This document shows, piece after piece, positions 4,334 through 42,466 of a stretch of DNA of 64,000 nt. Source of the DNA: Candidatus Dojkabacteria bacterium (lineage in GTDB: Bacteria > Patescibacteriota > Dojkabacteria > SC72); assembly GCA_012513575.1 (NCBI GenBank), contig JAAZBX010000001.1, positions 10,163 through 74,162 on the forward strand, in the 5' to 3' direction. Both the position numbers and the translations under genes were made by a program. Every line of letters starts with the position of its first letter. Within the stretch, counting starts at the first letter, position 1. The notes under the pieces were generated by a model. That model was given only the letters and a program-made list of their open reading frames with translations, was not told where the DNA came from and ran no database searches.

Positions 4334-4378
4334 TTATGATATAATACAGTTTAGAACTATTTAACACTAAATAGCTTT

Positions 4379-5999: not shown

Positions 6000-8429
6000 A
6001 TGATAGAGAAGTACAACCCTCAGGAAATAGAAAAAAAATGGCAAGAAAAATGGTATTCCTCCGATGTGTATAGAGCAAGGGACTTTGATGTAAATAGAGA
6101 AAAATACTATCTATTAGCCGAGTTTCCATACCCCTCTGGTGATTCTATGCACATGGGTCATGCTCGTAACTATACCGAAATGGATTCCTTGGCAAGATTA
6201 AGAAGGATGTTAGGTCAAAATGTACTGTATCCAATGGGTTGGGATGCTTTTGGTTTGCCAACAGAAAACTATGCGATAAAGATGAAAAGACCTCCACAAG
6301 AGATTACAAAAGAGAATATTGCTGCTTTTACAAGACAATTAAAAGCAATGGGATTCTCTTTTGATTGGAGTAGAGAGATAAATACAACAGATTCGGGATA
6401 TTACAAATGGACACAATGGATTTTTCTTCAACTGTATAAAAAGGGCCTTGCCTACAAGGCGGAAATGCCTATCAATTGGTGTCCTAAATGTAAGGTAGGT
6501 TGTGCAAACGAAGAAGTTATTGATGGGAAGCATGAAAGGTGTGGAACTGAAGTAACTAAGAAGAAATTGAATCAATGGGTTTTAAAAATTACTGAATATG
6601 CAGATCGTCTTGCAGACGAATTAGACGAAACAGATTATTGGGAGAGTGTAAAAGCAAGACAAAGAAATTGGATTGGAAGGAAGGTGTGGTATGACATTGA
6701 GTATCCAGTAGAAGGTACGAATGTTAAACTAAAGGTATCAACTACAAGGCCAGATACTCAATTTGGCTCAACTTTTGTAGTGATTGCTCCTGATGCAGAA
6801 ATTGTTGATCTTCTTTTAAAATATATCCCAGCAGAGAAGAGGGATGAGGTGTCAGATTATATAAATGAGTCAAAAAAGAAAACAGAAGAAGAGAGAACAG
6901 CAGGTGAAAAAGAAAAAACGGGCGTAGATACTGGTCTTAGATGTAAAAATAGCATAACGGACAAAAGTCTGCCAATATACCTTGCGGACTTTGTTCTTCC
7001 AACAGTTGGCACTGGTATGGTGGTAGGAGTCCCTGCTCATGATAAAAGGGACTTTGTATTTGCAAAAAAATATTCTCTTCCTATCATTCGAGTAGTTGAA
7101 GGGCCAAATGGAGACAGAGGAGAAATAGATTCTGTTGAAAAGGTATATGAAGATGAAGGATTGATTTTTGACTCTGGATTTATCAATAATCTGGGCAGTG
7201 TAGAAGCTAGAGAGAAGATGGGGGAGTATATTAAGGAAAAAAACATTGGTGAGGTAGTCATAAGGTATAACCTTAGAGATTGGATTTTCTCAAGGCAGCA
7301 TTATTGGGGAGAACCAATTCCAATTGTCCATTGTCCAAAATGTGGTGTTGTTCCGGTTTCCGAAAATCAGTTACCTGTTGAGCTACCAAAAGTTAAGAGT
7401 TATGAACCTACAGATACTGGAGAATCTCCGTTAGCAAATATTAAGGAGTGGGTAAATACTGTTTGTCCTATTTGTAAGGGTGAAGCAAAGAGAGAAACTG
7501 ATACGATGCCAAATTGGGCTGGTTCAAGTTGGTACTTCTTGAGGTACTTAGATCCGAAGAATTCAGAAGCGTTTGCAGATATGGACAAAATGAAATACTG
7601 GATGCCTGTTGATCATTATGAAGGTGGGTCCGAGCATGTTACTTTGCATCTTCTTTATTCCAGATTCTGGTATAAAGTTCTCTCAGATTTAAAACTAGTT
7701 CCAGGTTTGGAGCCATACAAAAAAAGAACAATACATGGAGTTGTTTTAGGAGAAGGTGGTGTCAAAATGTCAAAATCATTGGGAAATGTTATTACACCGG
7801 ATGGATTGCTAGATAGGTATGGAGCTGATGTCACAAGGGCATATTTGATGTTTATGGGTCCCTACGAAGGTGATGTAGTTTGGAGTACTGAAACTATAAA
7901 TGGTGTAAACCGATTTGTAGCAAAATTCTTCGTCTTTTTGCAAAAAGCATGGGAGCAAAGGGACACTAAAGGGGGTGCTAGCAGAGAGGTTGCCAAGCTT
8001 GCCAAGAAGGTTCAAAATGACTTGTTATCATTCAAGTTTAACACAGTTATCTCTTCTTTGATGCAATTTTACAACTCTGTTCAGGGGAAGGTATTTTCAA
8101 CTGAAGATATTGAGAAAATTATTTTAATTGTTTCTCCTATTCTTCCTCACATTGCTGAAGAGCTTTGGTCCCAAACAGGTCATGAATTTAGTGTGCACTC
8201 TCAACACTGGCCAGAAATCGAATCGAACCTTCTAATTGATGATTCTGTTTCTATTCCAGTTCAAATTAATGGCAAAGTTAGAGGTAAGATTCAAATATCT
8301 CCAAGGGCTTCTGAGGGGGAAGTAGTTGAGATTCTCAAGCAGCAAGAATTCTTTGTTAAAGTCTTCGCTTGCAAAGAGCCTAAAAGGATAGTGTATGTCC
8401 CTGGGAAGATAGTAAATATTGTCCAGTAA
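6000..8429 (+). CDS. leuS: leucyl-tRNA synthetase
   Basis: HIGH motif 'HMGHARNYT', KMSKS 'VKMSKSLGN', and the CP1 editing region. 809 aa. Confidence 0.95.
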   Translation: MIEKYNPQEIEKKWQEKWYSSDVYRARDFDVNREKYYLLAEFPYPSGDSMHMGHARNYTEMDSLARLRRMLGQNVLYPMGWDAFGLPTENYAIKMKRPPQEITKENIAAFTRQLKAMGFSFDWSREINTTDSGYYKWTQWIFLQLYKKGLAYKAEMPINWCPKCKVGCANEEVIDGKHERCGTEVTKKKLNQWVLKITEYADRLADELDETDYWESVKARQRNWIGRKVWYDIEYPVEGTNVKLKVSTTRPDTQFGSTFVVIAPDAEIVDLLLKYIPAEKRDEVSDYINESKKKTEEERTAGEKEKTGVDTGLRCKNSITDKSLPIYLADFVLPTVGTGMVVGVPAHDKRDFVFAKKYSLPIIRVVEGPNGDRGEIDSVEKVYEDEGLIFDSGFINNLGSVEAREKMGEYIKEKNIGEVVIRYNLRDWIFSRQHYWGEPIPIVHCPKCGVVPVSENQLPVELPKVKSYEPTDTGESPLANIKEWVNTVCPICKGEAKRETDTMPNWAGSSWYFLRYLDPKNSEAFADMDKMKYWMPVDHYEGGSEHVTLHLLYSRFWYKVLSDLKLVPGLEPYKKRTIHGVVLGEGGVKMSKSLGNVITPDGLLDRYGADVTRAYLMFMGPYEGDVVWSTETINGVNRFVAKFFVFLQKAWEQRDTKGGASREVAKLAKKVQNDLLSFKFNTVISSLMQFYNSVQGKVFSTEDIEKIILIVSPILPHIAEELWSQTGHEFSVHSQHWPEIESNLLIDDSVSIPVQINGKVRGKIQISPRASEGEVVEILKQQEFFVKVFACKEPKRIVYVPGKIVNIVQ

Positions 8430-8499
8430 ATTCAAATAGATATTGATTCATATTAGTTTAAACTGTATCCTATATACATATAAATTTATATTAATCATT

Positions 8500-9132
8500 A
8501 TGGGAGTAATGCTTGATACCCTAAAAGAAAATTCGAAAATTCTTTTGTTATCCATTGGGATTTTAATAGTATCTATTTTAGGCCTAATGCTAACTAAACA
8601 ATCTAATTTATCATCAACATCATTTATGGAAGAAGAAAAACTTGCTAACTTGCCAAATTACTCAGCAACTATTAAGACGAATATGGGTAATATTGAAATA
8701 GACCTTTTTGAAAAAGAGACGCCAAATACTGTTTCAAATTTTGTTAAGTTATCAAATGATAGCTTTTACAACGGTCTTATTTTTCATAGGGTAGTTGAGG
8801 GTTTTGTGATACAGGGTGGAGACCCAAATGGAAATGGAACTGGAGGTCCAGGGTATAAATTTAATGATGAGATTACAGTAAGGAAGTTCACAAGATACTC
8901 CCTTGCCATGGCAAACTCAGGGCCAAATACTAATGGTTCTCAATTTTTCATTACTTTGGGTGACATAGCTGAGGAAAACCTTAGAAATCTTGATGGGGGA
9001 TATACACTGTTTGGAGAGGTAACAGAAGGTACTGAGGTAGTTGACAGTATAGGAAGAGTGCAGGTAGATGAGAATGATAAGCCATTGACTCCTGTTGTGA
9101 TTGAGTCAATTACAATAAAAGAAGAGAAATAG
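8500..9132 (+). CDS. cyclophilin-type peptidyl-prolyl cis-trans isomerase with N-terminal TM anchor
   Basis: Cyclophilin signature 'FHRVVEGFVIQGGDPNGNGTGGPGYKFNDE'. The first ATG in the frame is at 8500; the ORF track's TTG at 8443 would add 19 hydrophobic residues. Confidence 0.85.
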   Translation: MGVMLDTLKENSKILLLSIGILIVSILGLMLTKQSNLSSTSFMEEEKLANLPNYSATIKTNMGNIEIDLFEKETPNTVSNFVKLSNDSFYNGLIFHRVVEGFVIQGGDPNGNGTGGPGYKFNDEITVRKFTRYSLAMANSGPNTNGSQFFITLGDIAEENLRNLDGGYTLFGEVTEGTEVVDSIGRVQVDENDKPLTPVVIESITIKEEK

Positions 9133-18851: not shown

Positions 18852-20393
18852 CTACTGTAATCTATATTCGTTAATATTAAAGAAACCTTGTTCGTCTTTT
18901 TCTAGTGTAACAATATTCTCTCTTGAATATTTGATTGTGTAATAGAGCATTTTGTCTGTAGGAATAGTTTTAACAGTGTTGTCACCATCCATTTCAGAAA
19001 TAGTAATGTAGTTATCTTTGATATATGAAAGATGCTTAGAATTCTTAACCCATCTGGGGAAATGTTCGGATTTTAATCCTGGAATATTAATTAATCCTAT
19101 TTCTTCTGTAGGATCTAACGTTTCTTTCTCAAAAGTAAATACAGAAGTGTTCTCCTTTGAACCGATAAGTAATCTCCTATTATCTGTTGATGTGGAAAGT
19201 AGTATTGATGGGAAATGAGAGATTGCCAAATATTTAGCATCAGGAATACTGTACCAGTATGATGCTACAGTGGTAGATAAAAATATTCCCTTCGCCTGCT
19301 TATTTATATATATGTAATCGATTTTCCCAACAGTTTGAGTGTTTTCGGGAGAATTCGTAAAGGGAACAAAGGGGTTTGTTTGAGCTCTGTAATATTCAAT
19401 ATATTTTTCATCTTTTTGCAAATAGACAGTTTTTAACAAAGAATCTTCATTCACTCCGTCTAAAGAAATACCTTCAATAGAGTAAGAGTAAACAGATGAA
19501 TTATCAATGGAATTATCTTTTAGATAGTAAAGATAACCATCCTCGGTAGTTGTCCAGATCTTTTTGGATTGGTCACTTTGGTTATTGATTTCATTCGTAA
19601 GTAATGTGTACATTAATCTATCAGTAATATTGTAGGAGAGAAGCTGAGTAGGAGATTCAAAAAGGATATGCTTATTGTCTTGTGCCCAGGATATTGTAAA
19701 GCCTTCAAGTTTTGAGAGGTCAATCTTATTATTTATACTCGGTACAAAGGCAGTTGATGTATTCATTAAATATGAGGAATTTCCGCTTTCCGTTTTTGTG
19801 GTTAAAAGAGCATATTCTCCATTAGGAGACTGCATTAGTGAGAGGGTGGAGTCAGAGGTTTCCCAAATCTTCATTGGATTATTCAATATCTCCCATAGAG
19901 AGCTTTCAATTTTATACTTCCATAAGGAATGTTTTTCAGCATTCTCTTTTAGTAGGACCAATACAACATCATTATTCTTATTTATCCAGTAATTAACAAA
20001 TTCTTTTTGTGGATTCCATATGGTATATTTCTTGTTGTCTGAAAGGAGAAGCCAAGGGGTAAGTATAGTTGTTGTCTCCTCTGGGATATTTATGATTTTA
20101 TTCCATAAATGGTAACCCTCTTTCTCAATTTTCACATCATGTACTCCATACTCGAGTACTTTGCTTTTGGGTGTTTTTCCTAAATTTTCATCATCAATAT
20201 ATATTGTTGCATTGGAAGGGTAGGTCTTTACTGTGAGAGCACCTGTTTTAGTAATTTTTTGATCTGTAAGATTGACCCTATAGCCTTTTGCGAGGAGGAA
20301 AAGGATAAACGCAAATGAAAAGACCAAAATTGAAAATAAAGTTGGAATAACTGCTGGGGTTGAATATTTTTGAGGTTTCTTTTCTTTTACCAT
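18852..20393 (-). CDS. membrane-anchored PEGA-domain protein with a large C-terminal, probably beta-rich, domain
   Basis: N-terminal TM helix, then a PEGA-like 'TVKTYPSNATIYIDDENLGKTPKS..VHDVKIEKEGYHLW'. The remainder is unannotatable by eye. Confidence 0.5.
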   Translation of the reverse strand: MVKEKKPQKYSTPAVIPTLFSILVFSFAFILFLLAKGYRVNLTDQKITKTGALTVKTYPSNATIYIDDENLGKTPKSKVLEYGVHDVKIEKEGYHLWNKIINIPEETTTILTPWLLLSDNKKYTIWNPQKEFVNYWINKNNDVVLVLLKENAEKHSLWKYKIESSLWEILNNPMKIWETSDSTLSLMQSPNGEYALLTTKTESGNSSYLMNTSTAFVPSINNKIDLSKLEGFTISWAQDNKHILFESPTQLLSYNITDRLMYTLLTNEINNQSDQSKKIWTTTEDGYLYYLKDNSIDNSSVYSYSIEGISLDGVNEDSLLKTVYLQKDEKYIEYYRAQTNPFVPFTNSPENTQTVGKIDYIYINKQAKGIFLSTTVASYWYSIPDAKYLAISHFPSILLSTSTDNRRLLIGSKENTSVFTFEKETLDPTEEIGLINIPGLKSEHFPRWVKNSKHLSYIKDNYITISEMDGDNTVKTIPTDKMLYYTIKYSRENIVTLEKDEQGFFNINEYRLQ

Positions 20394-20444: not shown

Positions 20445-21449
20445 ATGGAAAAGAAAAGAATTTTAACAGGAGACAGGCCAACTGGCAAACTTCATATTGG
20501 GCATTTACTTGGTTCTTTGTCAAACAGAGTAAAATTGCAGTATGAGTATGACTCTTTTATTGAGATTGCAAACATTCAAGCTCTCTCTGATAATTTCAAC
20601 AATCCTTCAAAAGTTAAAGATGGTATTATAGAACTTCTTTGTGATTATTATGCTGTAGGTATAGATTTTGACAAAGCCAACATATTTATACAAAGCGAAG
20701 TGCCTCAGATACATGAAATATTTATCTATTTGGCCAATTTTGCTACTGTTCAGCAGATACAACATAATCCGACAATAAAGACAGAAATGGCACAAAACAG
20801 ATATGAAGCCTCGACCCCTTTAGGTTTTTTCTTTTATCCAATTCATCAAGCTGCAGATATTTTTTCAGTAAATGCCGACTTGGTACCTGTTGGAAAAGAT
20901 CAATTACCCATGATAGAGGATGCAAGAGAATTGGGAAGAAGATTTAACAAAACTTACGGAGTAGATATCCTTGGTCAACCCGAAGCACTGTTAGGTACAA
21001 AAATAAATGTTCCTGGTATTGATGGAGCCGAGAAAATGGGGAAGAGTTTGAATAACTGTATTTACTTGTCAGATAGTCAAGAGGAATTAAAGAAAAAAGT
21101 ATTTAAAGTATATACAGATCCTACTAGAATACATGCAGACGATCCTGGTCAAGTAGAGGGGAATGTAGCTTTTACATATCTTGATTTATTCTCAGATGAA
21201 TCCCAAAAAGAGGAAATAGAAGATATGAAGAGAAGGTACAGGGAGGGTACAATTAAGGATATTGAAGTTAAGGGAAAACTTTTTGAAGTTATGGATGTTG
21301 TTTTGAAACCCATTAGGGATAGAAGAAAGGAAGCTGAAGAAATGAAGGACGAACTTGTTAAGAAAGCTTTAAATTCGAGCAGAGTTGTCTCATCGATAGC
21401 AAGAGAGACGGCGGATGAAATGAAAAAAGCTATGAAAATTGAATTTTAA
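20445..21449 (+). CDS. trpS: tryptophanyl-tRNA synthetase
   Basis: 'TGDRPTGKLHIGHLLG' (HIGH) and 'KMGKS'. 334 aa. Confidence 0.92.
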   Translation: MEKKRILTGDRPTGKLHIGHLLGSLSNRVKLQYEYDSFIEIANIQALSDNFNNPSKVKDGIIELLCDYYAVGIDFDKANIFIQSEVPQIHEIFIYLANFATVQQIQHNPTIKTEMAQNRYEASTPLGFFFYPIHQAADIFSVNADLVPVGKDQLPMIEDARELGRRFNKTYGVDILGQPEALLGTKINVPGIDGAEKMGKSLNNCIYLSDSQEELKKKVFKVYTDPTRIHADDPGQVEGNVAFTYLDLFSDESQKEEIEDMKRRYREGTIKDIEVKGKLFEVMDVVLKPIRDRRKEAEEMKDELVKKALNSSRVVSSIARETADEMKKAMKIEF

Positions 21450-21476: not shown

Positions 21477-22496
21477 ATGTTAGGAAAGAAGCTTGGAATT
21501 GATTTAGGAACTGCAAATTCAGTTATTTTTGTCCAAGGGGAAGGAGTTGTCTTGACTGAACCTACAGTTGTTGCAATTGATTTAGATACTCGAACTGTTA
21601 TTGCGGTTGGGACGAAAGCAAAACAGATGATTGGTAAAACACCAGAGAATATTGTAGCTAGAAGACCATTAAGAGAGGGGGTAATCGCTGATTCAAGAAT
21701 TACTGAAGCTTTGTTAAGATATTTCTATGATAGAGCTTTAGGTAAATCTAGGTTGATAAAGCCGGATGTAGTAATTAGTGTACCTGCTGGTATAACGTCA
21801 GTAGAAGAGAGAGCTGTCCATAAGGCTGCTAATGCTGTTGGCTCTCGAACTGTGACTCTTCTTCCAGAACCTTTGCTTGCAGCTTTAGGTGCAGGCCTTC
21901 CAATTCACACATCGTCTGGAAACATGATTGTAAATATGGGTGGAGGAACTAGTGAGGTTGGAGTAATGTCCCTTGATGGGATAGTAGAATACGAATCTAT
22001 TAGGGTAGGTGGAGATGCTCTTAACGAATATATTATATCCTATATGAAGAAAAAGAAGGGAATTTTAATTGGAGAGCAAAGTGCGGAGAATATTAAGATT
22101 AAAATTGGTTCCGCTGTTGAAGTTAGAGATCCAAAAGAAATGGAAGTAAGAGGAAGAGATGTTGGCGCTGGAATGCCAAAATCCATTATGGTAGATTCAA
22201 ATGATATTGCCAAAGCAATAGAGTTTCCTTTGAAAAGAATCATATCTGCAATTAAAACAGTTTTAGAGAAGACTCCACCAGAGCTATCGGCTGATATTAT
22301 TGATAGGGGAATGGTCATGAGTGGTGGTACTGCGAAACTAAGGAATTTAGACAAACTTTTTTCTAGGGCTACTGGAGTTCCTTGCCATGTGGCTGATGAT
22401 CCATTGCTTTGTGTCGTAAAAGGAACAGGGATAGCACTTGAACTTCTTGCTACAGGGGAGAGGAAATTCTCGTTTAACAAAGAATTTAGACGATAG
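21477..22496 (+). CDS. mreB: actin-like rod-shape protein MreB (paralog 1)
   Basis: 'LGIDLGTANSVIFVQGEGVVLTEPTVVA' phosphate-1 motif. Full-length actin fold, 339 aa. Confidence 0.85.
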   Translation: MLGKKLGIDLGTANSVIFVQGEGVVLTEPTVVAIDLDTRTVIAVGTKAKQMIGKTPENIVARRPLREGVIADSRITEALLRYFYDRALGKSRLIKPDVVISVPAGITSVEERAVHKAANAVGSRTVTLLPEPLLAALGAGLPIHTSSGNMIVNMGGGTSEVGVMSLDGIVEYESIRVGGDALNEYIISYMKKKKGILIGEQSAENIKIKIGSAVEVRDPKEMEVRGRDVGAGMPKSIMVDSNDIAKAIEFPLKRIISAIKTVLEKTPPELSADIIDRGMVMSGGTAKLRNLDKLFSRATGVPCHVADDPLLCVVKGTGIALELLATGERKFSFNKEFRR

Positions 22497-22516: not shown

Positions 22517-23677
22517 ATGGGAATTTTAGATAAAAAAAAGAAAAGCATGACACTAGATGAGGTAAGTACAAAGTTGGAGGAACTTAGATTGCCTACAGCT
22601 TTAGTCTTTACGCCACTGAACCTAGAAGTAGAGAGAAAGAAATTTTTTAATTCCGATATATATAGCCCATATTTTAAATACAGGATAGTAAAAAACAGTA
22701 ATGAGAAAATTCTGCAAGAGCTTTCAAAGGTAGAAGAAATTTCAGATATTGATCCAAGGGTATCTCAATTCTATGTCGATTTGATTAAATCAAAAGGGCA
22801 GACAAATGAATTAATGAATGCAGTTGGGAATAATTTAAGAGTAAGTGAAATCTCAAAAGAAAGGTTTGGAATTCCCTCAGAGAAACTTTATAGAAATGCT
22901 TGCAGGGTTTTAAGAGGTACTTTCAATAATTATAAACTAATTAAAAATCCTTCTCTAAAGAAAGAACCTCTTCTTGATTTTAATGATATTGTGAATGTAT
23001 TTGATTTGGTTTTTGAAGAATTAGGGTTAAGTGATTGGCAAGTCTATAAGTCTCAAAATATGGCCAAAAACGGTATGAAGGTAGGTATTAAGAGAAAGCA
23101 GATTTTAGTTAACCCTGAGATCCACAAAAGTAGGTTTAAACTTAAGAAATCGATTGTTCATGAGGTGGGAACACATGTTCTTCGATCAATTAATGGGTTT
23201 AATACAAATTTTTCAGCATTGGGAAATGCTAATTTGCCAAGTTATTTAGATATTGAGGAAGGTTTGGCAACGTACAATGAGAGTGACATGGGTTTATTAA
23301 CAGAAACAGGTCTAAAAAAGAAGGCAGCATTGGTTTTTGCAATTAAAAATGGAGAGCAAATGACTTTTAGGGAATTGTACAACTGTTTGTTAGGAATTTT
23401 CCCCAAATATGCAGCTTTTGATATTGTATATCGTGTGAAGAGGGGACTTGCAGATACAGCAAAACCTGGAATTTATACCAAAGATATTGTTTATTTTAGG
23501 GGTTTTAGAAGAGTAAAAAACTCTTTAGAAAAAGATAACTCACTATACAACAAGCTGTATTCAGGTAAAATTAGTTTGAAACAGGTTTCTTGGGTAGAGG
23601 AGGGTTTGATTCCAAAAGCAAAAACGGTGCCTTCTAAAGAAATGTGGACCAAAATATTCAAGAAAGCAGGTTTGTAA
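22517..23677 (+). CDS. DUF1704 / 'QEGLA-motif' family protein (bacterial homolog of the MATCAP tyrosine carboxypeptidase family); putative zinc metallocarboxypeptidase
   Basis: 'HEVGTH' zinc-binding-like motif, then '(E)EGLATY', the family's QEGLA signature. About 386 aa, typical for the family. The assignment rests on motif recall, not a search. Confidence 0.6.
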   Translation: MGILDKKKKSMTLDEVSTKLEELRLPTALVFTPLNLEVERKKFFNSDIYSPYFKYRIVKNSNEKILQELSKVEEISDIDPRVSQFYVDLIKSKGQTNELMNAVGNNLRVSEISKERFGIPSEKLYRNACRVLRGTFNNYKLIKNPSLKKEPLLDFNDIVNVFDLVFEELGLSDWQVYKSQNMAKNGMKVGIKRKQILVNPEIHKSRFKLKKSIVHEVGTHVLRSINGFNTNFSALGNANLPSYLDIEEGLATYNESDMGLLTETGLKKKAALVFAIKNGEQMTFRELYNCLLGIFPKYAAFDIVYRVKRGLADTAKPGIYTKDIVYFRGFRRVKNSLEKDNSLYNKLYSGKISLKQVSWVEEGLIPKAKTVPSKEMWTKIFKKAGL

Positions 23678-23765: not shown

Positions 23766-24038
23766 ATGAGTGAGACTCTTGAAAATATTGTATTATGGTT
23801 AACGTTCGCTTTGGTTATGATTACTCTTGTTTTAAGTGTAATGAGATTAAAAGGATTCCTAAAGGAAACAAAAAATCTTAGAATTATGATAATCGTTTTG
23901 TATATACTTCTAGGAGTCCTCCATATCATTGGAACAACTATTCAGCAATCAAGGCTAATAATTATACTAGACGCAGTATTCGGAATTATTTGGCTTATCC
24001 TTGCTTATCTGGAAATAAGACATCCTGTCGTAAGATAG
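23766..24038 (+). CDS. small 3-TM membrane protein (90 aa)
   Basis: Strong SD AGGAGG 6 nt upstream of the ATG. Three hydrophobic helices. A TATAAT box at 23710-23715. Confidence 0.55.
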   Translation: MSETLENIVLWLTFALVMITLVLSVMRLKGFLKETKNLRIMIIVLYILLGVLHIIGTTIQQSRLIIILDAVFGIIWLILAYLEIRHPVVR

Positions 24039-24065: not shown

Positions 24066-24110
24066 AGCCTAAGGTTAACTGATTTCATATCTTTAGCCTT
24101 AGGCTTTTTT
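24066..24110 (+). terminator. hairpin (9-bp perfect stem AGCCTAAGG/CCTTAGGCT, about 22-nt loop) plus T-run between convergent genes
   Basis: Read directly. T6 then CTTTTT follows the stem on the + strand. Confidence 0.5.
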
Positions 24111-24114
24111 CTTT

Positions 24115-25053
24115 TTATCTAAATGCTGTAATAATTGCTTCTGCAATATTTACTGGAGTACCCTCTATCTTTGTTTCGTATGCTTTAAATCCAGGGTGGA
24201 AACTAAACTCTTGTACTGCAAGCTTGTTGTTAATATACATAAAATCTACAGCTATAAAATCCGCATTAAGTATGGTAGCCACTTTTTCAGCCATCTCTTT
24301 CATCTCCCTATTGGGTTGATTATACATTTCGTATATTCCCTTACTTACCGTCATGAAGCTATCATTTGCTATTCTTTTCCAGCCACCAATAACCTTACCT
24401 AGTTTTACAAATACTCTGTAATCTTCACCTGTATCAGAAAATTCTTGGATAAAGAAATTTCTATAGTCCCTCTCTCTTAATTCGTCTTCATTATTAATTT
24501 TGAAAACATTCTTCTTAATAACTTCTTTCCCTTCTTTAATTTCAATTCTATTAGCCCCTGTATATTCTTTAATGATCAAAGGAAAATTATTAAGAACTTT
24601 TCTTCTGGTTAAGTAATCTCCATCAGTTCTAAAGTAAGAATTGAAGTAGGGTATATTATTTTTTATACAGAATTGAGCTATTGCAATTTTATTGTAGTAT
24701 GGGAACTTCTTTATTGCTTCAGCATTTTGAACAAAAATCTTTTTGGAAGGGTTTTCTTTGTTATATTCATCTATGAAGTCAATAATGTATCTCTTATAGT
24801 GATACTCCTTTTCATTTTCAAGAGAGTGCCCACGAAAAAGAATATGAGAATAGTCAGAGATAGGGTTGCTATCAGCGAATATTTTCATTTTCCCATCTTG
24901 GAAGACAAATTCTAATTGATCATTAAAGATGAAATCATTTTCAATATTTTTCTTTTTGAGTTCTTCTACTATCCTCTTAGATGCAGTAGGGATTTCTTTC
25001 TCTCCGATTCTAGGTCTTTTGTCGATGATTAAATACCTCATATATTTATACAA
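24115..25053 (-). CDS. ATP-grasp family ligase (312 aa)
   Basis: ATP-grasp motifs 'PLIIKEYTGANRIEI', 'FIQEF...GEDYRVFVKLGKVIGGWKR' and 'ADFIAVDFMYINNKLAVQEFSFHPGF'. Its start overlaps the upstream gene by 8 nt. Confidence 0.65.
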   Translation of the reverse strand: MYKYMRYLIIDKRPRIGEKEIPTASKRIVEELKKKNIENDFIFNDQLEFVFQDGKMKIFADSNPISDYSHILFRGHSLENEKEYHYKRYIIDFIDEYNKENPSKKIFVQNAEAIKKFPYYNKIAIAQFCIKNNIPYFNSYFRTDGDYLTRRKVLNNFPLIIKEYTGANRIEIKEGKEVIKKNVFKINNEDELRERDYRNFFIQEFSDTGEDYRVFVKLGKVIGGWKRIANDSFMTVSKGIYEMYNQPNREMKEMAEKVATILNADFIAVDFMYINNKLAVQEFSFHPGFKAYETKIEGTPVNIAEAIITAFR

Positions 25054-26749
25054 TTTTTATTTTATTTATAAACCTTTTTGTTTTATATCTCTTAACAATC
25101 TTCATTTCATCTTTCTCTGCTTCATCTTTACTTATGATTAACAAATCAATGTTGTTAAAACCCAAGCCATCACTCTTTACTGCATCCCAATCTCTGTGAT
25201 GAACGATTATTCCGTCCAAAGAGGCATTAACCTTAAGAGCTTCCAAAGCTTTCCATTTCTCAAGGCCATCATTAATTTCTAACCCATTTATTCTCATATA
25301 TCCATCTTTGTACTCTCCAATTACATCTTTCTTTGAGAAATATGATCCCCAGAGACTTTTCTCACTAAGAAGTGTTAATATGTCAGGGAGAGTATTTCCT
25401 ATAGCAACAATTTTTTTTGTTTGATTCTCTTTAAGTAGTTTCTCTACAAATGTCTTTACTACATATTCTCTCTCTTCTCCCAAAACAGGGAAGAAATTTA
25501 AATATGCTTCAGGCATGGTATTAACTTCTAATATTGCACCATTCTCTTTTGTTAGAGGCTTACTAATGTCTTTACATAGAACATCTACACCAAGAGTAAA
25601 CGCATGTATAGAGGAGGCAATACTTTCAACCACATACTTAATTTCATCAGACACTTCATCAGTAAAATCCTCTGTGATTCCTCCTTTACTCATACTAGCT
25701 ACCTTTCTGACAGGGATTTTTTCATTTAATTTTGGGATGTAATCTAAAGAGAGATTTTGTTGCTCCAAATGGTCTATGAGGGATTCATCAATTACAATGG
25801 GTTTTAATGTGTGTACTGGGCTAGAGGTGTCCCTTTTTGGATCTTTGTTTGTTTCATTAATTAATTTTTTTATAGAATTTTTTCCATCTCCAATTATGAA
25901 AGCAGGAATTCTTTTTGTTGCAATCTCAAGTTTCCCATCTATAACAAGGAGCCTGTAATCTTCTCCGGGGACCTGTTCTTGGATCATTATCTTTTTTTGC
26001 CATTCCTCTCTTGGTTTCTCATTTACAGACTTTTGTGCAAATTCAAATGCTTTTTTAGCTTCATCAAGAGTATTTAATCCAACCACAACACCGTTCCCCC
26101 CAGTAAGGCCTGTTGGCTTAATTACAACTGGTTTTGCAAAATCAGACCATATTTCCTCTAATTGATTTTTGTTCTCAATTGTTTGCCATTTAGGTATAGG
26201 AAGACCTAATCTAGAGATCATTAAGTTTGTAGACCATTTATCTTTTTGAATCTCTTTGGCGTTTTTGGAATCCTTACTTGATGATATGGAATAGATAATT
26301 TGGGAACCTTTTCCACAACCGAGCGTGTGATGTCTGTTATATGTTTTGGGATATCCGGATTTATTAGTTTGAATAATTGCTTGATCAAGCAGGGTAGGTG
26401 TAATCTCATAGCCAAGGTCGTATGCAGTATTCAATATTGGGATTGTGGACATGGAAGCGACCCTTTGTTTAATTAGTTGATCTACAAGAAGCTCTTTACA
26501 TTTTTCAAATGAAATTTGTGAACAACCCAATTGTTGTAAGTAATCATTTGCTTCTCTCCAAAGAAATGGAATTTTTGTTTCAATATAAAGGTAACCTTGG
26601 GTAAAATAGTATTTTTCAATAAAAAGAGGATGATAATTTTTTACTAAATCTAAAATCTTTTTTACTGAATCGTCCTCATTTACTTCAATAATTACGGTTG
26701 AGTAGGGCGATATTAAGTTTAATCCTTGCAACACTTGTGCTTTCTTCAT
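25046..26749 (-). CDS. cyanophycin synthetase-like protein with CphA N-domain and ATP-grasp G-domain but no Mur-ligase (M) domain (567 aa)
   Basis: The N-terminus 'MKKAQVLQGLNLISPYSTVIIEVNEDD' resembles the CphA N-terminus. G-domain motifs 'VVIKPTGLTGGNGVVVG', 'EDYRLLVIDGKLEIATKRIPAFIIGDGKNSIKKLINETNKDPKR', 'GVDVLCKDISKP..ILEVN'. The C-terminal roughly 130 aa lack the GxxGKT of Mur ligases. Confidence 0.65.
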   Translation of the reverse strand: MKKAQVLQGLNLISPYSTVIIEVNEDDSVKKILDLVKNYHPLFIEKYYFTQGYLYIETKIPFLWREANDYLQQLGCSQISFEKCKELLVDQLIKQRVASMSTIPILNTAYDLGYEITPTLLDQAIIQTNKSGYPKTYNRHHTLGCGKGSQIIYSISSSKDSKNAKEIQKDKWSTNLMISRLGLPIPKWQTIENKNQLEEIWSDFAKPVVIKPTGLTGGNGVVVGLNTLDEAKKAFEFAQKSVNEKPREEWQKKIMIQEQVPGEDYRLLVIDGKLEIATKRIPAFIIGDGKNSIKKLINETNKDPKRDTSSPVHTLKPIVIDESLIDHLEQQNLSLDYIPKLNEKIPVRKVASMSKGGITEDFTDEVSDEIKYVVESIASSIHAFTLGVDVLCKDISKPLTKENGAILEVNTMPEAYLNFFPVLGEEREYVVKTFVEKLLKENQTKKIVAIGNTLPDILTLLSEKSLWGSYFSKKDVIGEYKDGYMRINGLEINDGLEKWKALEALKVNASLDGIIVHHRDWDAVKSDGLGFNNIDLLIISKDEAEKDEMKIVKRYKTKRFINKIKIV

Positions 26750-26761
26750 TCTTCTTAGATA

Positions 26762-27751
26762 TTAACTTAAATATTTATCTCGGATGTATTCCATTATAGG
26801 TACAGCTACCTCTGTCTTTTGCCCTTTATCAACTTTGTAGTGTAACCTAAGCCCAGGGTTGTAGTTTACCTCGTTAATTGCACATTTGCTGGGTTTGGAG
26901 ATATTTTCTGCGATAATATCAACTCCTCCAAATTCCGTATCTAGTGCTTTTATAGCTCTTATTGCAAGTTGATTGTAAAAATCATTTACCTCACTTTGAC
27001 ATTCTTCTGTCGTACCACCAGTTGTTAAATTACAATTATACCTAAGTATTACTTCTTCGTCTTTTTGTGGAATTGATTCTAAATTCATGTTATTTCTTTG
27101 TAATTTAAGGACAAGTTCGTTGTCGATTACTATCGGAAGCATTATATTCTTTTTTCTCTCTTCGTTTTTCAATTCTATGAGTTTTCTTATTGAATTCTCT
27201 CCATTTCCGACAATATGTGCGGCCTTTCTTCTAACGACACCAATCACTTTCTCTCCAAGGACTAAGAACCTGTAATTATCACCTTGAACGAATTCTTCTC
27301 CGATTACCTTTTTACTATCATCTGGATTATGTGATAGGTTAAACGCATTTTTGTAAGCATTAAGAACTTGCTCCTCGCTTTGTGGTAAAAGAGAAACGCC
27401 TTTTCCTCCTAATTGTTGTGAGGGTTTAATTACTATATTTTTATAGTTATGAAAGAATTTTATTGCATCAATCTCGCATGCTAGAATTTCTTGTTTTGGT
27501 ACAGGTATTCCATTTTTTTCTAATACCATATGAGTAAGATTTTTTCTTTTACAAATTGTAGTACTTGGAGTTGGAACTAGGGGAGTGACAGTATTGATAA
27601 TATACCAATGTTTGTTTTTAATTTTAAATTCTGCCATTAATCCTGGAACTAATACATGATATTCAATCCCCAGCTTATAAGCTGCTTCAATGTAGTAGGA
27701 GAGATGGATATTTCCTGCTTCTTTTAAAAAATTTTTTTCCCCCTCTGTCAT
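26762..27751 (-). CDS. cyanophycin synthetase G-domain-like ATP-grasp ligase (329 aa, stand-alone)
   Basis: 'VIKPSQQLGGKGVSL', 'DNYRFLVLGEKVIGVVRRKAAHIVGNGENSIRKLIELKNEERKK', 'GVDIIAENISKPSKCAINEVNYNPG'. Confidence 0.65.
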   Translation of the reverse strand: MTEGEKNFLKEAGNIHLSYYIEAAYKLGIEYHVLVPGLMAEFKIKNKHWYIINTVTPLVPTPSTTICKRKNLTHMVLEKNGIPVPKQEILACEIDAIKFFHNYKNIVIKPSQQLGGKGVSLLPQSEEQVLNAYKNAFNLSHNPDDSKKVIGEEFVQGDNYRFLVLGEKVIGVVRRKAAHIVGNGENSIRKLIELKNEERKKNIMLPIVIDNELVLKLQRNNMNLESIPQKDEEVILRYNCNLTTGGTTEECQSEVNDFYNQLAIRAIKALDTEFGGVDIIAENISKPSKCAINEVNYNPGLRLHYKVDKGQKTEVAVPIMEYIRDKYLS

Positions 27752-27768
27752 TTGGTAAATATTTAATA

Positions 27769-29223
27769 TTAATTACTGAATGTTTTACTTGTATCTATTA
27801 AATACCCTTTCAATACTTCTCGACCAATTATTAGATGATAATCTGAATTCTCAATTATTACCACTTCAATATCTTTTATCTCGCCAGAGATTTTCACTTT
27901 AATATCAACAACTGGACGGACTTTGACATCTTCGCCATCAACAATTTTCGCAACTCTTTTGATATTCTCTTCCAAAGTTAATGCTTTTAAATGAGTATCA
28001 ATATATTCCTGAGCCTCTTTAATAGAGTTGAACTTTCTTGGAACATTTAGAGAATTAAAATATTGTGTAGTAGCTAAAAAACCAACTCTGTTAGCAAAAG
28101 TCTCTGACATTCTTGAAGTAAGTACCCCAGTATCCATAAAAGCACGGCCAGATTCTTTTTCGGGCTCTTTCTTCTTTGTTTTGTTTTGGTGAAAGACCAT
28201 TACTTTCTCATCAATTGTAACAACCTTTCTACCACTTATTGTTTCAATACTTTCTTCAACCTCCCCGCCAAAAAGACTCTTTGCTAATCTGATCCCATGT
28301 TTAATATTTTTTACTTCCACATCCTTAACTTTCTCTAGCCTCCATCTAAGTCCTGCTTTATTTGCGACTTGTATTCCAAGCCCAGGTCTTGCGTTAAGTT
28401 CAAAGACAATTGGTCCGTGTTCGGCATCTAGCGCGATATCTACACCAATGTATCCTAATTTTGATACTCTTTGACACTTTAGAGCGATTTCAAGAATTGA
28501 GTCCCATTCAGGTATATGAATTCCGCTTAAAATTTTGTTTTCCTTAAGATCCTGTGTTGTATCGATATCCTCATATGTGTCACTAAAAGGGGAGTTAGTA
28601 TCCATTTGCATAGAATAGGTAGTAATGCCAGTAGCAATATCAATTCCAGTACAAATAGCTCCAGAATGAAGATTTGCGGTACCATTAGACCTTTTTGTCG
28701 GAATTCTTGTCATTGCCATTATGGGTACGCCGTTAAAGCATATTACTCGGATATCTGGGACTCCCTTGTAAGAATACTGTTTAAGTAATGGAGCGGTCTT
28801 CACTCTTTCTTCAATAATAGCAATATCTTTTCGATTTCCCATCGAAAATCTTCCATCTAAGATGTTTTCTATATGAAGGATGATGTCATTTCTTGTCATA
28901 ATATCACCATTTGGTCTAATCCATGCATACTGTCCTTTCTTTTTCCCATAGAAAACAATTATGCCGTTGCCTCCAGTTCCTTGATTTGGCTTAATTACAA
29001 AGCTCTTTGGGAGAGAATCCCAGTCTATGAATTTAAGTTGTTGTTTGTTCCTAATTAATTTGTATACCTCAGGAGTCTTAATATTCTCTTTAGCTAGAAC
29101 CTTTTTTGTCAGAATTTTATTATCCGCAATCCTTTTAGCTGATGGAGGATTAAAAGGTCGAATGTATTCCTGGTTCCTTCTATTTAAACCCAAAATGTTC
29201 TTATACTTACTTCTTTGTGTCAT
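27769..29223 (-). CDS. RimK-related alpha-L-glutamate-ligase-like ATP-grasp enzyme fused to a C-terminal RimB-like retropepsin-type ('ATP-dependent Zn protease', DUF785-like) domain
   Basis: N-terminal 'ILGLNRRNQEYIRPFNPPSAKRIADNKILTKK' is the hallmark start of the alpha-L-glutamate-ligase-like family. ATP-grasp core 'FVIKPNQGTGGNGI', 'GVPDIRVICFNGVPIMAMTRI', 'YIGVDIALDAEHGPIVFELNARPG'. C-terminal domain with 'FMDTGVLTS' (D-T-G) and 'EVVIIENSDYHLIIGREVLKGYLID'. Confidence 0.7.
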   Translation of the reverse strand: MTQRSKYKNILGLNRRNQEYIRPFNPPSAKRIADNKILTKKVLAKENIKTPEVYKLIRNKQQLKFIDWDSLPKSFVIKPNQGTGGNGIIVFYGKKKGQYAWIRPNGDIMTRNDIILHIENILDGRFSMGNRKDIAIIEERVKTAPLLKQYSYKGVPDIRVICFNGVPIMAMTRIPTKRSNGTANLHSGAICTGIDIATGITTYSMQMDTNSPFSDTYEDIDTTQDLKENKILSGIHIPEWDSILEIALKCQRVSKLGYIGVDIALDAEHGPIVFELNARPGLGIQVANKAGLRWRLEKVKDVEVKNIKHGIRLAKSLFGGEVEESIETISGRKVVTIDEKVMVFHQNKTKKKEPEKESGRAFMDTGVLTSRMSETFANRVGFLATTQYFNSLNVPRKFNSIKEAQEYIDTHLKALTLEENIKRVAKIVDGEDVKVRPVVDIKVKISGEIKDIEVVIIENSDYHLIIGREVLKGYLIDTSKTFSN

Positions 29224-29872
29224 TTTCCTTAATTACAGATTTAAATCGAAAGTAGTCTTTGAGCCTTAATCCTTTAAATTGGCCAATAATTAAGTTGGCA
29301 AAGATTAATAACGGGATAAGCCACAAATTATTAATAACATAATTTGAAATGTAATCTCGAGTAATTACAAACCATCCAGCTGTGGCAATTAATACTGTTC
29401 CAAATAGTGCAGTAAATGAAGACTTACTTGATTTTTGTACAAATTGTTTAGTAAAGAAATCAGAAAGTGCGGCTATTGAAATTAACGCTAGAGGTGGGAC
29501 AGTGGACATATTTTCTAAGCCCAGACCCAACTCATCAATTAGTATAATAAAGGAAACTAAAGCGATGCTTAAAAGACAGTAGTTAATTGCAATTCTTGTA
29601 ATATAGTGCATTCTAATCTTCTTAAGTACCAGGTGGGAAAGTAATGATACTGTTATCACCATAAAAGTTATTGCCAATCCGTATTTTAAGCCAGTATAAG
29701 AATAGGCAATTGCAAGTAAAATAGGAGCATAAATCCCATATGATTTAGTCCCAAAAAGATATCTGAATATACTTACAATAGTTGCAACAATTGTAATAGC
29801 TAAAAAAAGCTCTAATGTTTTTTCGGGCACTCCATGTTCTAATATCCACTGAGTAAAAGTAGAGTAGTACAT
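29207..29872 (-). CDS. 7-TM integral membrane protein, first gene of the ATP-grasp operon
   Basis: Seven hydrophobic helices counted by eye. Overlaps the next gene by 17 nt. The position matches the 7TM partner of RimK-like/QEGLA cassettes but no transglutaminase domain is present. Confidence 0.55.
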   Translation of the reverse strand: MYYSTFTQWILEHGVPEKTLELFLAITIVATIVSIFRYLFGTKSYGIYAPILLAIAYSYTGLKYGLAITFMVITVSLLSHLVLKKIRMHYITRIAINYCLLSIALVSFIILIDELGLGLENMSTVPPLALISIAALSDFFTKQFVQKSSKSSFTALFGTVLIATAGWFVITRDYISNYVINNLWLIPLLIFANLIIGQFKGLRLKDYFRFKSVIKENDTKK

Positions 29873-31240: not shown

Positions 31241-32674
31241 ATGAGTTTTAGGAAAAACTTGGAATACCTTAGAAAGGGTAAAAAACTTTCACAGGAGGAG
31301 TTGGCTAACAGGCTGAATGTTTCTAGGCAATCAGTATCTAAATGGGAGTCGGGTGGTGCTTATCCTGAGACAGAAAAAATGCTTGTAATGTGTAAAATTT
31401 TTGATTGTTCTCTTGATCAGTTGATGAATGATGATATTGCTGAGATAGAGAAGAGTGAGGCTAGAAAATATACCTTTAACGATTTACTAAATGAATTTAC
31501 AAAAATTATTAGAGGTACTATTGATATGTTAGGCTCAATGAATACGAAGTCAGTCATTAAATTCCTTTTTGAAATAGGTTTGTTATTTTTAATTATTTTG
31601 TTATTAAATATTCCATTCTCATATATTAGCAGTATTGGCTCTTCTTTCTTCTATAGCTTTGGTACAACAGCTGGTGGAATCCTTTCAGGATTCTGGGAGT
31701 TTTTGACAAAAATAGTATATCTTGTAGTTGCGGTTTTAACCTTTGCTTATATCTATAAGATAAGATTTATTGATAAATTTCATAGTATACAAGAGGAAGT
31801 AGAGAAGGAAAAAGAGCATTCTGTTGAAAAACAAGTAATTAGAGAGAAAGAAGTAGTTAAGAATATTGAAGTAAAAAAATATGACTTTGGACTTTTCTCT
31901 CTAATTGGGAGATTTGCCATGGCCTTTGTAAAATGTTTTGTTTTCTTCATTTCAATGCCTATTGTTTTTCTCCTATTTTGTTCTTCAGCCGGGGTTTTAA
32001 TAGGTATTGTCTGGATGTTTAGTGGAATCTTTTATTTAGGTATTATCGTTTTCCTTCTTTCTTTTATACTTTTTGCTGTGTCATTACTGAAAGCTTTTTA
32101 CAATTTTATTGTAGATAACAGGACAAATTGGAAGAAACTCTTTGTTGTGTTTATGATTTCAATCATAGGTTTGGGAGTTGGAGCTGGAATTTCTTTCTTG
32201 GATTTCTCAAAATTAACGATAAACTCAAAAGCTCCTAGCAGAGTAGTTGCTAATAAAGAAATTGGGGAGTATCCCATGAGTGAAAACTTGGTACTTTTTA
32301 ATTACGGTCTGGGTGGCACTCAATCTGCATATTATGAAGTTGATGATTCATTAGTAGGCACTGTAAGGATAGAAGTGGAATATTACAGAATGTTTTCAAA
32401 ACCAATAATTACAATTTCAGAATCTGAGGAGGGAAGGGTGATTAATGTATTCAATGAAGGAGAATCAAGTGTAAATTTAAGTAAAATATATAAAATATTT
32501 TTAGATGATTTAAAACACTATACTCTCTCAAACTATTCTGAATTAGGAGGTTTTCAGGTAAATGTGTATTCAAGTAAAGAAAATATTGAAAAAATGCAAA
32601 ATAATTTCTTTTTAGCAATTAATGAAACAGAAGTACAACCAGAGGTAATCGAAGATTTTCCTGAGAATCTATAA
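31241..32674 (+). CDS. XRE-family HTH transcriptional regulator fused to a polytopic membrane domain and a C-terminal extracytoplasmic domain
   Basis: HTH_3 'LRKGKKLSQEELANRLNVSRQSVSKWESGGAYPETEKMLVMCKIFDCSLDQLM', followed by at least five TM helices. Confidence 0.75.
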   Translation: MSFRKNLEYLRKGKKLSQEELANRLNVSRQSVSKWESGGAYPETEKMLVMCKIFDCSLDQLMNDDIAEIEKSEARKYTFNDLLNEFTKIIRGTIDMLGSMNTKSVIKFLFEIGLLFLIILLLNIPFSYISSIGSSFFYSFGTTAGGILSGFWEFLTKIVYLVVAVLTFAYIYKIRFIDKFHSIQEEVEKEKEHSVEKQVIREKEVVKNIEVKKYDFGLFSLIGRFAMAFVKCFVFFISMPIVFLLFCSSAGVLIGIVWMFSGIFYLGIIVFLLSFILFAVSLLKAFYNFIVDNRTNWKKLFVVFMISIIGLGVGAGISFLDFSKLTINSKAPSRVVANKEIGEYPMSENLVLFNYGLGGTQSAYYEVDDSLVGTVRIEVEYYRMFSKPIITISESEEGRVINVFNEGESSVNLSKIYKIFLDDLKHYTLSNYSELGGFQVNVYSSKENIEKMQNNFFLAINETEVQPEVIEDFPENL

Positions 32675-40031: not shown

Positions 40032-41105
40032 TTGTATTCATTTTTACCGATGAGCTTTATTGACTCTTTTTGGAAACTGATAACATATGATTTGGGCATT
40101 GATTTAGGAACAGCGAACACCATGGTATATATGAGGAATCACGGTGTTGTGGTATCTGAACCTTCAGTTGTTGCTATTGATAAAAGAACCAAAATGGTTC
40201 TGGCTGTTGGAAAAGATGCAAGGCAAATGATTGGTAGAACACCAAGCAATATTGTCGCAGTAAGACCTCTGCGTGATGGGGTGATCTCAGATTTTGATAC
40301 TACCCAAGCTATGATTCATCATTTTATTACAAAGTCTCATAAATATTTTACAAAAGGAATTAGAATTCAAAGACCAAGGGTGATTATTGGGGTACCTTCC
40401 TCTGTGACCGAAGTAGAAAGGCAGGCTGTGATTGATGCGGTTAAAACTGCACAAGCAAGAAAAGTCTATGTAGTTGAAGAGGCCATGGCTGCAGCAATAG
40501 GGGCAGGACTTCCGATAGAAGATGCGTCTGGGAGCATGATTATCGATTTGGGTGGTGGTACCACAGATATTGCAGTTTTCTCTTTGGGAGATATGGTCGT
40601 TGATAGGACAATGAAAATTGCAGGTGATGAGATGGATGAGGACATAATTAACTATGTAAAAAGTAAATACAACATGTTAATAGGGGAGAGAAGTGCAGAG
40701 GATATCAAAATAATGATGGGCTCAGCAATGCCACTTAAGAAAGAGAAAAAATACCCTGTCCAAGGAAGAGATTTACTTACAGGATTACCAAAAACTGTTG
40801 AAATTAGTAGTATTGAAGTTCGAGAGGCCATAATGAATACGATCTCATTAATAACCGAGGCGGTTAAAGATGCAATTGAAGAAACTCCTCCGGAATTACT
40901 TAAAGACTTGGTGTCCTCGGGTGTTTATGTCGCTGGTGGTGGTGCGTTGATTAGAGGTTTGGATACTTTCTGGACAAAGGAGTTAGAGTTGCCAGTAAAA
41001 ATTGTAGAAGATCCCTTATCAGCGGCGGCAAGAGGGACTTCATTAATGCTTGATCACATAGAATTGCTTGATAGAGTCCAAAGATCTTGGGAAGAATTAG
41101 TTTAA
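40032..41105 (+). CDS. mreB: rod-shape-determining protein MreB (paralog 2, in the mreBCD-mrdA operon)
   Basis: 'DLGIDLGTANTMVYMRNHGVVVSEPSVVA', full actin fold, followed by mreC/mreD/PBP2. Confidence 0.9.
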   Translation: MYSFLPMSFIDSFWKLITYDLGIDLGTANTMVYMRNHGVVVSEPSVVAIDKRTKMVLAVGKDARQMIGRTPSNIVAVRPLRDGVISDFDTTQAMIHHFITKSHKYFTKGIRIQRPRVIIGVPSSVTEVERQAVIDAVKTAQARKVYVVEEAMAAAIGAGLPIEDASGSMIIDLGGGTTDIAVFSLGDMVVDRTMKIAGDEMDEDIINYVKSKYNMLIGERSAEDIKIMMGSAMPLKKEKKYPVQGRDLLTGLPKTVEISSIEVREAIMNTISLITEAVKDAIEETPPELLKDLVSSGVYVAGGGALIRGLDTFWTKELELPVKIVEDPLSAAARGTSLMLDHIELLDRVQRSWEELV

Positions 41106-41116
41106 TTCGATATTAA

Positions 41117-42462: not shown

Positions 42463-42466
42463 AAAG

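Follow-up and report, generated by a model that had tools for sequence, protein, structure and literature searches.

What role could a relative of the human tubulin carboxypeptidase MATCAP play in a bacterium that has no tubulin? The question is raised by a gene at positions 22517-23677 (+ strand) of a 64,000-nucleotide stretch of contig JAAZBX010000001.1 (assembly GCA_012513575.1, Candidatus Dojkabacteria bacterium), termed here the window. The gene encodes a predicted zinc metallocarboxypeptidase of the MATCAP/DUF1704 family and converges on an operon of ATP-grasp ligases. In 2022-23, MATCAP was identified as a missing tubulin detyrosinase and deglutamylase. In the reading preferred here, which we consider reasonably probable, the Dojkabacteria protein would be an active cytoplasmic zinc carboxypeptidase that serves a Rim/Rlo-like module of ATP-grasp peptide ligases as its exopeptidase arm.

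The gene has an ATG start, coincides with exactly one open reading frame (ORF) and encodes 386 amino acids. In the Pfam profile search, the protein matched PF08014 (MATCAP, formerly DUF1704) with an E-value of 8.4e-31 and 107.7 bits, compared with a gathering score of 27, and the match covered residues 42-362 and profile positions 2-330 of 365. The NCBIfam 'QEGLA' model, TIGR02421, was also matched (E 1.4e-35), at 123.2 bits versus an equivalog cut-off of 338.65, which places the protein outside that equivalog; its own motif reads EEGLA rather than QEGLA. The sole real sequence matches in the PDB were the chains of human MATCAP (KIAA0895L; 7z5g, 7z5h and 7z6s; E 6e-12), and the significant alignment to them was restricted to residues 30-56 and 205-358. 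The statistics of the family match are far beyond chance, a conclusion for which the HExxxH motif taken alone would not suffice.

The zinc-binding and catalytic HExxxH motif takes the form HEVGTH (residues 215-220, nucleotides (nt) 23159-23176) and aligns with human HEIGTH (H280/E281/H285), the catalytic Glu of which bears the E281Q substitution in chain 7z6s. Further downstream, EEGLA (residues 247-251, nt 23255-23269) aligns with the human EEGLA motif (E316), and E248 is the predicted third zinc ligand. The HExxxH motif is invariant in alignments A1 and A2. In A1, which comprises Dojkabacteria, alpha- and gamma-proteobacterial and human MATCAP sequences, the invariant residues are H215, E216, G218, H220, N226, E248, G249, L250, A251, R306, R309, G310, K322, D323 and Y326. 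All 78 full-length family members fetched contain HExxxH followed by (E/Q/D)EG. The initial annotation, which had named a DUF1704/MATCAP-like peptidase with HExxxH and EEGLA as its family motifs, is thus borne out on both counts. Since the catalytic residues are invariant, an inactive pseudo-enzyme was rejected.

The predicted fold agrees with this assignment. An AlphaFold2 model built on 26 homologues (mean pLDDT 87.7, pTM 0.85) found significant matches only to MATCAP when compared with the PDB by Foldseek (7z5g and 7z6s; E 7e-10 to 4e-9, probability 1.00, TM 0.52-0.62). By inspection, no signal peptide or transmembrane (TM) segment is evident at the N-terminus, and a cytoplasmic location is predicted. 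The protein is strongly basic (isoelectric point (pI) 9.6, net charge about +21), a weak indication compatible with an acidic substrate. As securely as sequence analysis allows, the protein can be regarded as a genuine MATCAP/DUF1704-family metallopeptidase with its metal-binding and catalytic residues intact. Family membership is already annotated in public databases, in which NCBI labels the close Dojkabacteria homologues 'DUF1704 domain-containing protein' or 'tyrosine/phenylalanine carboxypeptidase domain-containing protein'.

The putative partners of the peptidase are encoded by a tightly packed operon of five minus-strand genes, which overlap by up to 17 nt or lie at most 17 nt apart. 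The first gene (29207-29872) encodes a seven-transmembrane (7TM) membrane protein of 221 aa (PF14402, E 1.4e-19, profile positions 55-247). It is homologous to the 7TM half of RloB, in that only positions 312-508 of NF052267 were matched (51 bits versus 900), and a transglutaminase-like domain is absent from its profile matches. The second gene (27769-29223) encodes an RloC-like ATP-grasp ligase (ATPgrasp_ST, alpha-L-glutamate ligase-like; PF14397, E 4.3e-66), which scores 292.4 bits with TIGR02291 (cut-off 314.2). This ligase has a C-terminal retropepsin-like domain, with weak matches to PF05618 and PF09668 at residues 407-474 and with a DTG active-site motif (residues 364-366, nt 28126-28134) that is kept in 24 of 25 orthologues. 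The next two genes encode ligases related to the G domain of cyanophycin synthetase. One of these (26762-27751, 329 aa; TIGR02068, E 3e-60) is also related to the C-terminal domain of GshAB, and matches cyanophycin synthase 7lgn (E 2.4e-33) and GshAB 3ln7 (E 4e-28) in the PDB. The other (25046-26749, 567 aa) has extra N- and C-terminal regions and matches TIGR02068 (E 2e-69) at profile positions 183-480 only. The last gene (24115-25053) encodes a RimK-like ATP-grasp ligase of 312 aa (PF08443, E 6.7e-09), for which the PDB contained no match by sequence. The RimK family model (TIGR00768, cut-off 143.4) gave 52.1 bits with this protein and 72.5 bits with the best of the four ligases.

The initial annotation had also placed the peptidase beside 'RimK/TTL-like' ligases. 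ATP-grasp genes do adjoin it, but they are convergent with it on the opposite strand, in a separate operon that lies beyond a 90-aa ORF and a probable terminator hairpin. A RimK-like ligase is indeed present, together with ligases of the RloC (ATPgrasp_ST) and cyanophycin-synthetase-G-domain types, but none of the four ATP-grasp proteins matched the TTL family in Pfam at E up to 0.01.

The arrangement was analyzed further within the Dojkabacteria. The contig scan yielded a sole close relative, an 87%-identical locus in a metagenome-assembled genome of a Candidatus Dojkabacteria (WS6; Patescibacteria/candidate phyla radiation, CPR). At 58-71% peptidase identity, the same block recurs: a PEGA-domain gene, trpS in some cases, mreB2 (a second MreB paralogue) and the peptidase gene, facing the convergent RimK-like gene, the two genes of cyanophycin synthetase (CphA)-G-like ligases, the RloC-retropepsin gene and the 7TM gene. 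Around this block the flanking genes differ, trpS is often missing and unrelated genes sometimes lie between the convergent units, the 3' ends of which often abut or overlap in Dojkabacteria-type loci. In total, 40 Dojkabacteria-type loci had enough sequence downstream for this comparison, and 38 of them, several being near-duplicates, had kept the convergent ligase operon. Three further loci, picked via RloC-like homologues and thus blind to the peptidase, displayed the same arrangement. At lower identity, the peptidase gene is found inside the ligase cluster at locus L073 (35%; protein cluster named Dojkabacteria) and adjoins the RloC-retropepsin and 7TM genes at locus L044 (30%); at both loci, neither mreB nor PEGA genes occur within 10 kb.

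Other lineages contain a closer form of association. A fusion protein of ~790 aa, with ATPgrasp_ST at residues 15-285 and MATCAP at ~472-790, is encoded at six loci (L056, L057, L064, L072, L077 and L083; truncated at L063), directly after the gene of a ~500-aa 7TM_transglut protein. Homologues of this fusion numbered 1,363 at E up to 1e-10, and the best 120 of them (49-100% identity) all comprised both domains; the named organisms among these 120 were mostly Candidatus Peregrinibacteria. The fusions are annotated only as 'DUF1704 domain-containing protein', and the fusion is implicit in the JGI annotation. At L056, the 7TM_transglut partner (7034-8530) has an N-terminal PKD domain in place of a recognisable transglutaminase-like domain.

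Two additional contexts link the family to ligases. At loci L078, L081, L082 and L084, a stand-alone peptidase is encoded beside two to three RimK/GshB-like ligases and a RimB-like retropepsin, while replicons of Rhizobiaceae and Photobacterium encode a fusion of the peptidase domain with an N-formylglutamate-amidohydrolase-like (FGase) domain, the gene of which abuts that of a GshB-like ATP-grasp protein. In a rough neighbour-joining tree, the four ligase-linked contexts fall in separate clades (at least four), and the mreB-less, ligase-linked L073 and L044 are located at the base of the Dojkabacteria clade. By this tree, the link to ligases is recurrent and older, and the link to mreB2 derived and lineage-specific. 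A functional rather than accidental pairing of peptidase and ligases is supported, since the block appears conserved from either a peptidase or a ligase starting point, the two enzymes are fused in CPR bacteria, and at least three further clades have RimK/GshB-like neighbours.

The same comparisons bear on the alternative that survives best, in which the protein is a general cytoplasmic carboxypeptidase with which an auxotrophic CPR cell recovers amino acids from the peptides that it imports, the ligase adjacency being inherited synteny. Many orphan family members have unrelated neighbours (threonyl-tRNA synthetase, RNase HII, CorA or a radical-SAM protein), the closest fold matches of the model after MATCAP are M32 carboxypeptidases, though non-significant (E > 0.07), and the peptidase gene is on the opposite strand to the ligases. 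All of these features would suit a salvage enzyme. Inherited synteny, in turn, fits poorly with a peptidase domain fused to an RloC-like ligase in the best 120 of 1,363 fusion homologues, with an association with ligases in at least four separate clades, and with an adjacency that persists while the surrounding genes change. Salvage is considered fairly unlikely.

In the module proposed here, the products of the five-gene operon would attach amino acids, likeliest Glu and/or Asp, to a peptide, polymer or protein at its C-terminal carboxylate. The retropepsin fused to the RloC-like ligase would cut the ligase-made chains internally, and the MATCAP-like enzyme would take residues singly off the free C-terminus, thereby limiting or resetting chain length. 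Jointly, the two proteases could bound chain length or recycle the product. The human enzymes MATCAP/TMCP1 and TMCP2 release Tyr and Glu from the C-terminus and trim alpha-linked polyglutamate chains, but they spare the branch-point Glu (PMC10499314). RimB and the Rlo retropepsins cleave polyglutamate, for which they need runs of at least 8 Glu (PMC12239564). In P. aeruginosa, loss of all RloA proteases is lethal in low-salt medium, and deletion of rloB or rloC suppresses this lethality (PMC12239564); from this rescue it follows that the RloA proteases work against whatever the ligase and the 7TM protein produce. At low salinity, the adjoining GshB-like and QEGLA genes of Photobacterium damselae are induced together, 38- and 27-fold, respectively (PMC10308900). 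The initial annotation had suggested a cycle of modification by ligase and peptidase; its pairing with ATP-grasp ligases is backed by the conserved block, the fusions and the further clades, whereas the ligases are not of the TTL type.

Several observations weigh against this proposal. The literature searched contained no biochemical evidence for any bacterial member of the MATCAP family. The peptidase gene is on the strand opposite the ligases and, by spacing, appears to be co-transcribed with trpS and mreB2. Neither an acidic-tailed candidate substrate nor rpsF was found in the window or in the fetched loci, the S6 query sequence being an approximate one. Loci L037 (46% identity) and L012 (59%) retain mreB2 without a ligase immediately downstream. 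ATP-grasp neighbours are absent around roughly half of the distant members fetched, 7 of which have at least 5 kb of flank on both sides; because of this proportion, the PF08014 family is not obligately linked to ligases. Finally, descent alone can preserve synteny inside one class, and since the synteny within the Dojkabacteria could be inherited in this way, the evidence from outside the Dojkabacteria-type block is decisive.

An unlikely alternative concerns the product rather than the pairing. The ligases might make a short soluble peptide, for example a glutathione-like compound or an osmolyte of two to three residues, and the peptidase would then degrade that metabolite and not a polymer or a protein tail. 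Two of the ligases do resemble GshAB, N-acetylglutaminylglutamine synthetase and the G domains of cyanophycin synthetase; the proteobacterial relatives fused to the FGase-like domain beside a GshB-like ligase respond to low salt; and osmotic stress has been linked to Rlo systems (PMC12239564). A product of this size is difficult to reconcile with partner retropepsins that require at least 8 consecutive Glu (PMC12239564) and with MATCAP homologues that work on protein tails and polyE chains (PMC10499314), and four ligases together with a 7TM protein exceed the needs of a dipeptide pathway.

The third alternative arises from the genes upstream of the peptidase. On the plus strand, trpS (20445-21449; tryptophan--tRNA ligase, TIGR00233, 245 bits, above cut-off) is followed after 27 nt by mreB2 (21477-22496; PF06723, E 7.5e-128), the stop codon of which is 20 nt upstream of the peptidase start. 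The same-strand position of trpS and mreB at short gaps, as initially annotated, is thus confirmed. The three genes are a probable transcription unit with trpS first. This is read from gene spacing, since the scans gave nothing above chance: 15 promoter-like sites were found versus 15.2 in shuffled sequence, and the consensus terminator scan called none. Because trpS is found in some related loci only, it lies outside the conserved core. MreB2 is basic (pI 9.2), and it is regarded as an extra paralogue because a canonical mreB-mreC-mreD-PBP2 operon is located at 40032-44473 (+ strand; mreB 40032-41105, 357 aa, pI 5.3). It has a short C-terminal extension (...GERKFSFNKEFRR) that the canonical MreB lacks. 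Divergent from this unit is the gene of a membrane-anchored PEGA-domain protein of 513 aa (18852-20393, - strand; PF08308, E 2.8e-15). In every Dojkabacteria-type locus the PEGA gene diverges from (trpS-)mreB2, even at L037 with no adjoining ligase operon, and its product may be functionally paired with MreB2.

The proximity of mreB2 suggests a cytoskeletal code, in which the peptidase, with or without the ligases, would remodel the C-terminus of MreB2 in the manner of MATCAP and TTL on tubulin. The mreB2 gene ends 20 nt upstream on the same strand and is found upstream of the peptidase gene in all Dojkabacteria-type loci of at least 46% identity, including the ligase-less L037; only MreB2 has the C-terminal extension; and P. 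aeruginosa rlo mutants have cell-shape defects (PMC12239564). The tails themselves argue otherwise. Among 28 distinct aligned C-termini of MreB2, the last 3-6 residues vary freely (...KEFRR, ...NKGLN, ...EKSIS, ...PTVSY, ...SSMLE and ...GSGSN), and they are neither acidic nor consistently aromatic, the extreme C-terminus of the window MreB2 being basic. In addition, no mreB adjoins the peptidase gene at the basal loci L073 and L044 or in any other clade, because of which the mreB2-peptidase linkage is regarded as derived and lineage-specific, and there is no evidence of C-terminal modification for any MreB. In view of the unconserved C-terminus of MreB2 and of the basal ligase-linked relatives, the suggestion of an MreB substrate in the initial annotation has no support. 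On account of these variable, non-acidic C-termini, MreB2 was rejected as the substrate in the leading model and is retained as a very improbable alternative. The broader version of the idea, according to which an actin homologue in bacteria would carry a code like that of tubulin and MreB2 or a partner such as the PEGA protein would be extended at its C-terminus by the four ligases and trimmed by the MATCAP-like peptidase and the retropepsin, is likewise a long shot. If true, C-terminal extension and trimming of MreB2 or of its PEGA partner would tune cell shape or envelope growth.

How, then, does a peptidase-containing ligase module of the kind favored here compare with known systems? The human enzymes MATCAP1/TMCP1 (KIAA0895L) and MATCAP2/TMCP2 (KIAA0895) share with the window peptidase the Pfam family, the fold, and the HExxxH and EEGLA motifs, and the window peptidase also has the 'DTxxP' insertion of human MATCAP before the conserved KD..Y segment. 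The human enzymes oppose ATP-grasp amino-acid ligases, as proposed by analogy for the window peptidase. Identity is, however, about 20-30%, the host has no tubulin, and the partner ligases are of the RimK, RloC and CphA-G types and not TTL/TTLL.

Closer to home are the ATPgrasp_ST-MATCAP fusions of Peregrinibacteria and other Patescibacteria (e.g., P0121, 790 aa), which combine the same two enzyme families with a 7TM_transglut partner in CPR hosts. In the fusions, ligase and peptidase form one polypeptide, retropepsin is absent, and the 7TM protein of ~500 aa has an extracellular N-terminal domain (PKD in L056). In the window, by contrast, the ligase is fused to a retropepsin, the peptidase is encoded by a separate convergent gene, and there are three more ligases.

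The window shares with RloABC of P. aeruginosa (PMC12239564) an RloC-like ATP-grasp ligase, an RloB-like 7TM protein and a retropepsin-type protease. RloA is a secreted stand-alone retropepsin with a signal peptide, whereas the window retropepsin is fused to a cytoplasmic ligase and has no signal peptide of its own, because the domain is the C-terminal part of the ligase polypeptide. RloB consists of a 7TM region and an inactive transglutaminase domain, the latter being absent from the window 7TM protein. In addition, the window proteins score under the NCBIfam cut-offs, and three more ligases and the MATCAP-like peptidase are added.

In the RimK-RimB system of ribosomal protein S6 polyglutamylation, an ATP-grasp alpha-L-glutamate ligase and the retropepsin that trims the Glu tail are both cytoplasmic (PMC12239564), a pairing that resembles the one proposed for the window. 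Here, the RimK-like ligase scores far under the family cut-off and rpsF is not in the window, and RimK-RimB has no MATCAP-type peptidase. CphA1 consists of N, G (ATP-grasp) and M (Mur-ligase-like) domains, of which the two window ligases match the G part only: their matches to TIGR02068 extend over profile positions about 166-480 of 862, with 204-235 bits compared with a cut-off of 850, and the PDB matches likewise concern the G domain. The proteobacterial QEGLA-type proteins belong to the same Pfam family as the window peptidase and adjoin an ATP-grasp (GshB-like) ligase. They differ in that identity is 22-25%, the motif is QEGLA and not EEGLA, DTxxP is missing and an N-formylglutamate-amidohydrolase-like domain is fused at the N-terminus. 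Judged from these comparisons, the ligase operon would be Rim/Rlo-like in its working, yet it falls outside the RloABC, RimK, CphA1 and TTL families as these are defined. As a composite of four ligases, a fused retropepsin, a 7TM protein and a carboxypeptidase of the MATCAP type, the system of this CPR genome is a new form of Rim/Rlo-type module.

Iyer et al. 2009, on amidoligases, is reportedly the source of the Pfam definitions of ATPgrasp_ST and 7TM_transglut. In the literature searched, which did not include Iyer et al. 2009 or Landskron et al. 2022, there was no link between MATCAP/DUF1704 and ATP-grasp proteins and no discussion of prokaryotic MATCAP homologues. The gain in knowledge is moderate: the family is already annotated, ligase-peptidase modules are a familiar theme, and the proposed mechanism is drawn from comparative genomics. 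The interest of the locus lies in an evolutionary antecedent of the antagonism between tubulin ligases and MATCAP, and in a handle on the Rlo-type product. It is implied that a module in which a ligase adds and a MATCAP-type carboxypeptidase removes predates its eukaryotic use on tubulin, since the bacterial family is repeatedly tied to ATP-grasp amino-acid ligases by fusion or adjacency. For the Rlo-type product, a carboxypeptidase that replaces or joins the retropepsin predicts a free alpha-linked C-terminus, probably acidic. Related contigs point to a genome of roughly 0.7-0.8 Mb, and the fact that so large a module (five genes and the peptidase) is kept in it suggests that the module is of importance to the cell biology of CPR bacteria.

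EEGLA and the 'DTxxP' insertion (in the region of window residues 313-319) are common to the Dojkabacteria protein and human MATCAP, whereas the proteobacterial proteins have QEGLA and no insertion. Against a fragment of human MATCAP, the orphan bacterial loci L047 and L049 scored best (65 bits), followed by Dojkabacteria (57) and the proteobacterial fusions (19-24). With the human fragment preferring L047 and L049, there is no evidence for Dojkabacteria as the specific source of eukaryotic MATCAP.

The whole family comprises ~2,530 clusters at 50% identity, mostly stand-alone proteins of 340-390 aa. One stand-alone member, P0258 (367 aa), is assigned to an archaeon of the Candidatus Woesearchaeota (DPANN), on the strength of which the family is taken to occur in small-genome archaea as well. 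Paired MATCAP-family genes lie near each other at L060 (621-2177, - strand, and 3697-4770, + strand) and at L082 (2031-3179 and 3205-4305), and one of the L060 proteins (518 aa) is extended at its N-terminus by ~180 aa for which Pfam gave no match.

Between the two convergent units of the window lies a small hydrophobic ORF of 90 aa (23766-24038, + strand) with ~3 TM helices predicted by inspection and a GGAGG ribosome-binding site; a promoter-like TAGAGA-17-TATAAT sequence precedes it. No Pfam match was obtained for this ORF, and its only homologue was detected in the near-identical locus L038. Elsewhere this spot contains nothing, a 103-aa ORF or an HD-domain gene, and because other loci hold either nothing or unrelated genes there, it is regarded as a variable insertion point. 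Adjacent to the ORF is a hairpin flanked by an A-run and a U-run (24066-24105; fold energy -21 kcal/mol, z-score -4.35, 0 of 200 shuffles as stable), which was missed in the consensus terminator scan but was spotted by eye and confirmed by folding. It is a probable bidirectional intrinsic terminator that separates the convergent units.

Two further genes recur around the block. A 477-aa protein encoded at 31241-32674 (+ strand) has an N-terminal Xre-type helix-turn-helix (HTH), several TM-like hydrophobic segments and a C-terminal domain. Its architecture is loosely RodZ-like, with no match to a RodZ-specific profile, and it recurs just past the 7TM gene in several Dojkabacteria loci (also L002, L003 and L088). 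In some related Dojkabacteria contigs (L003, 1-512; L004, 78-1463), a homologue of the RuBisCO large subunit is encoded upstream of the block, at a distance of a few genes.

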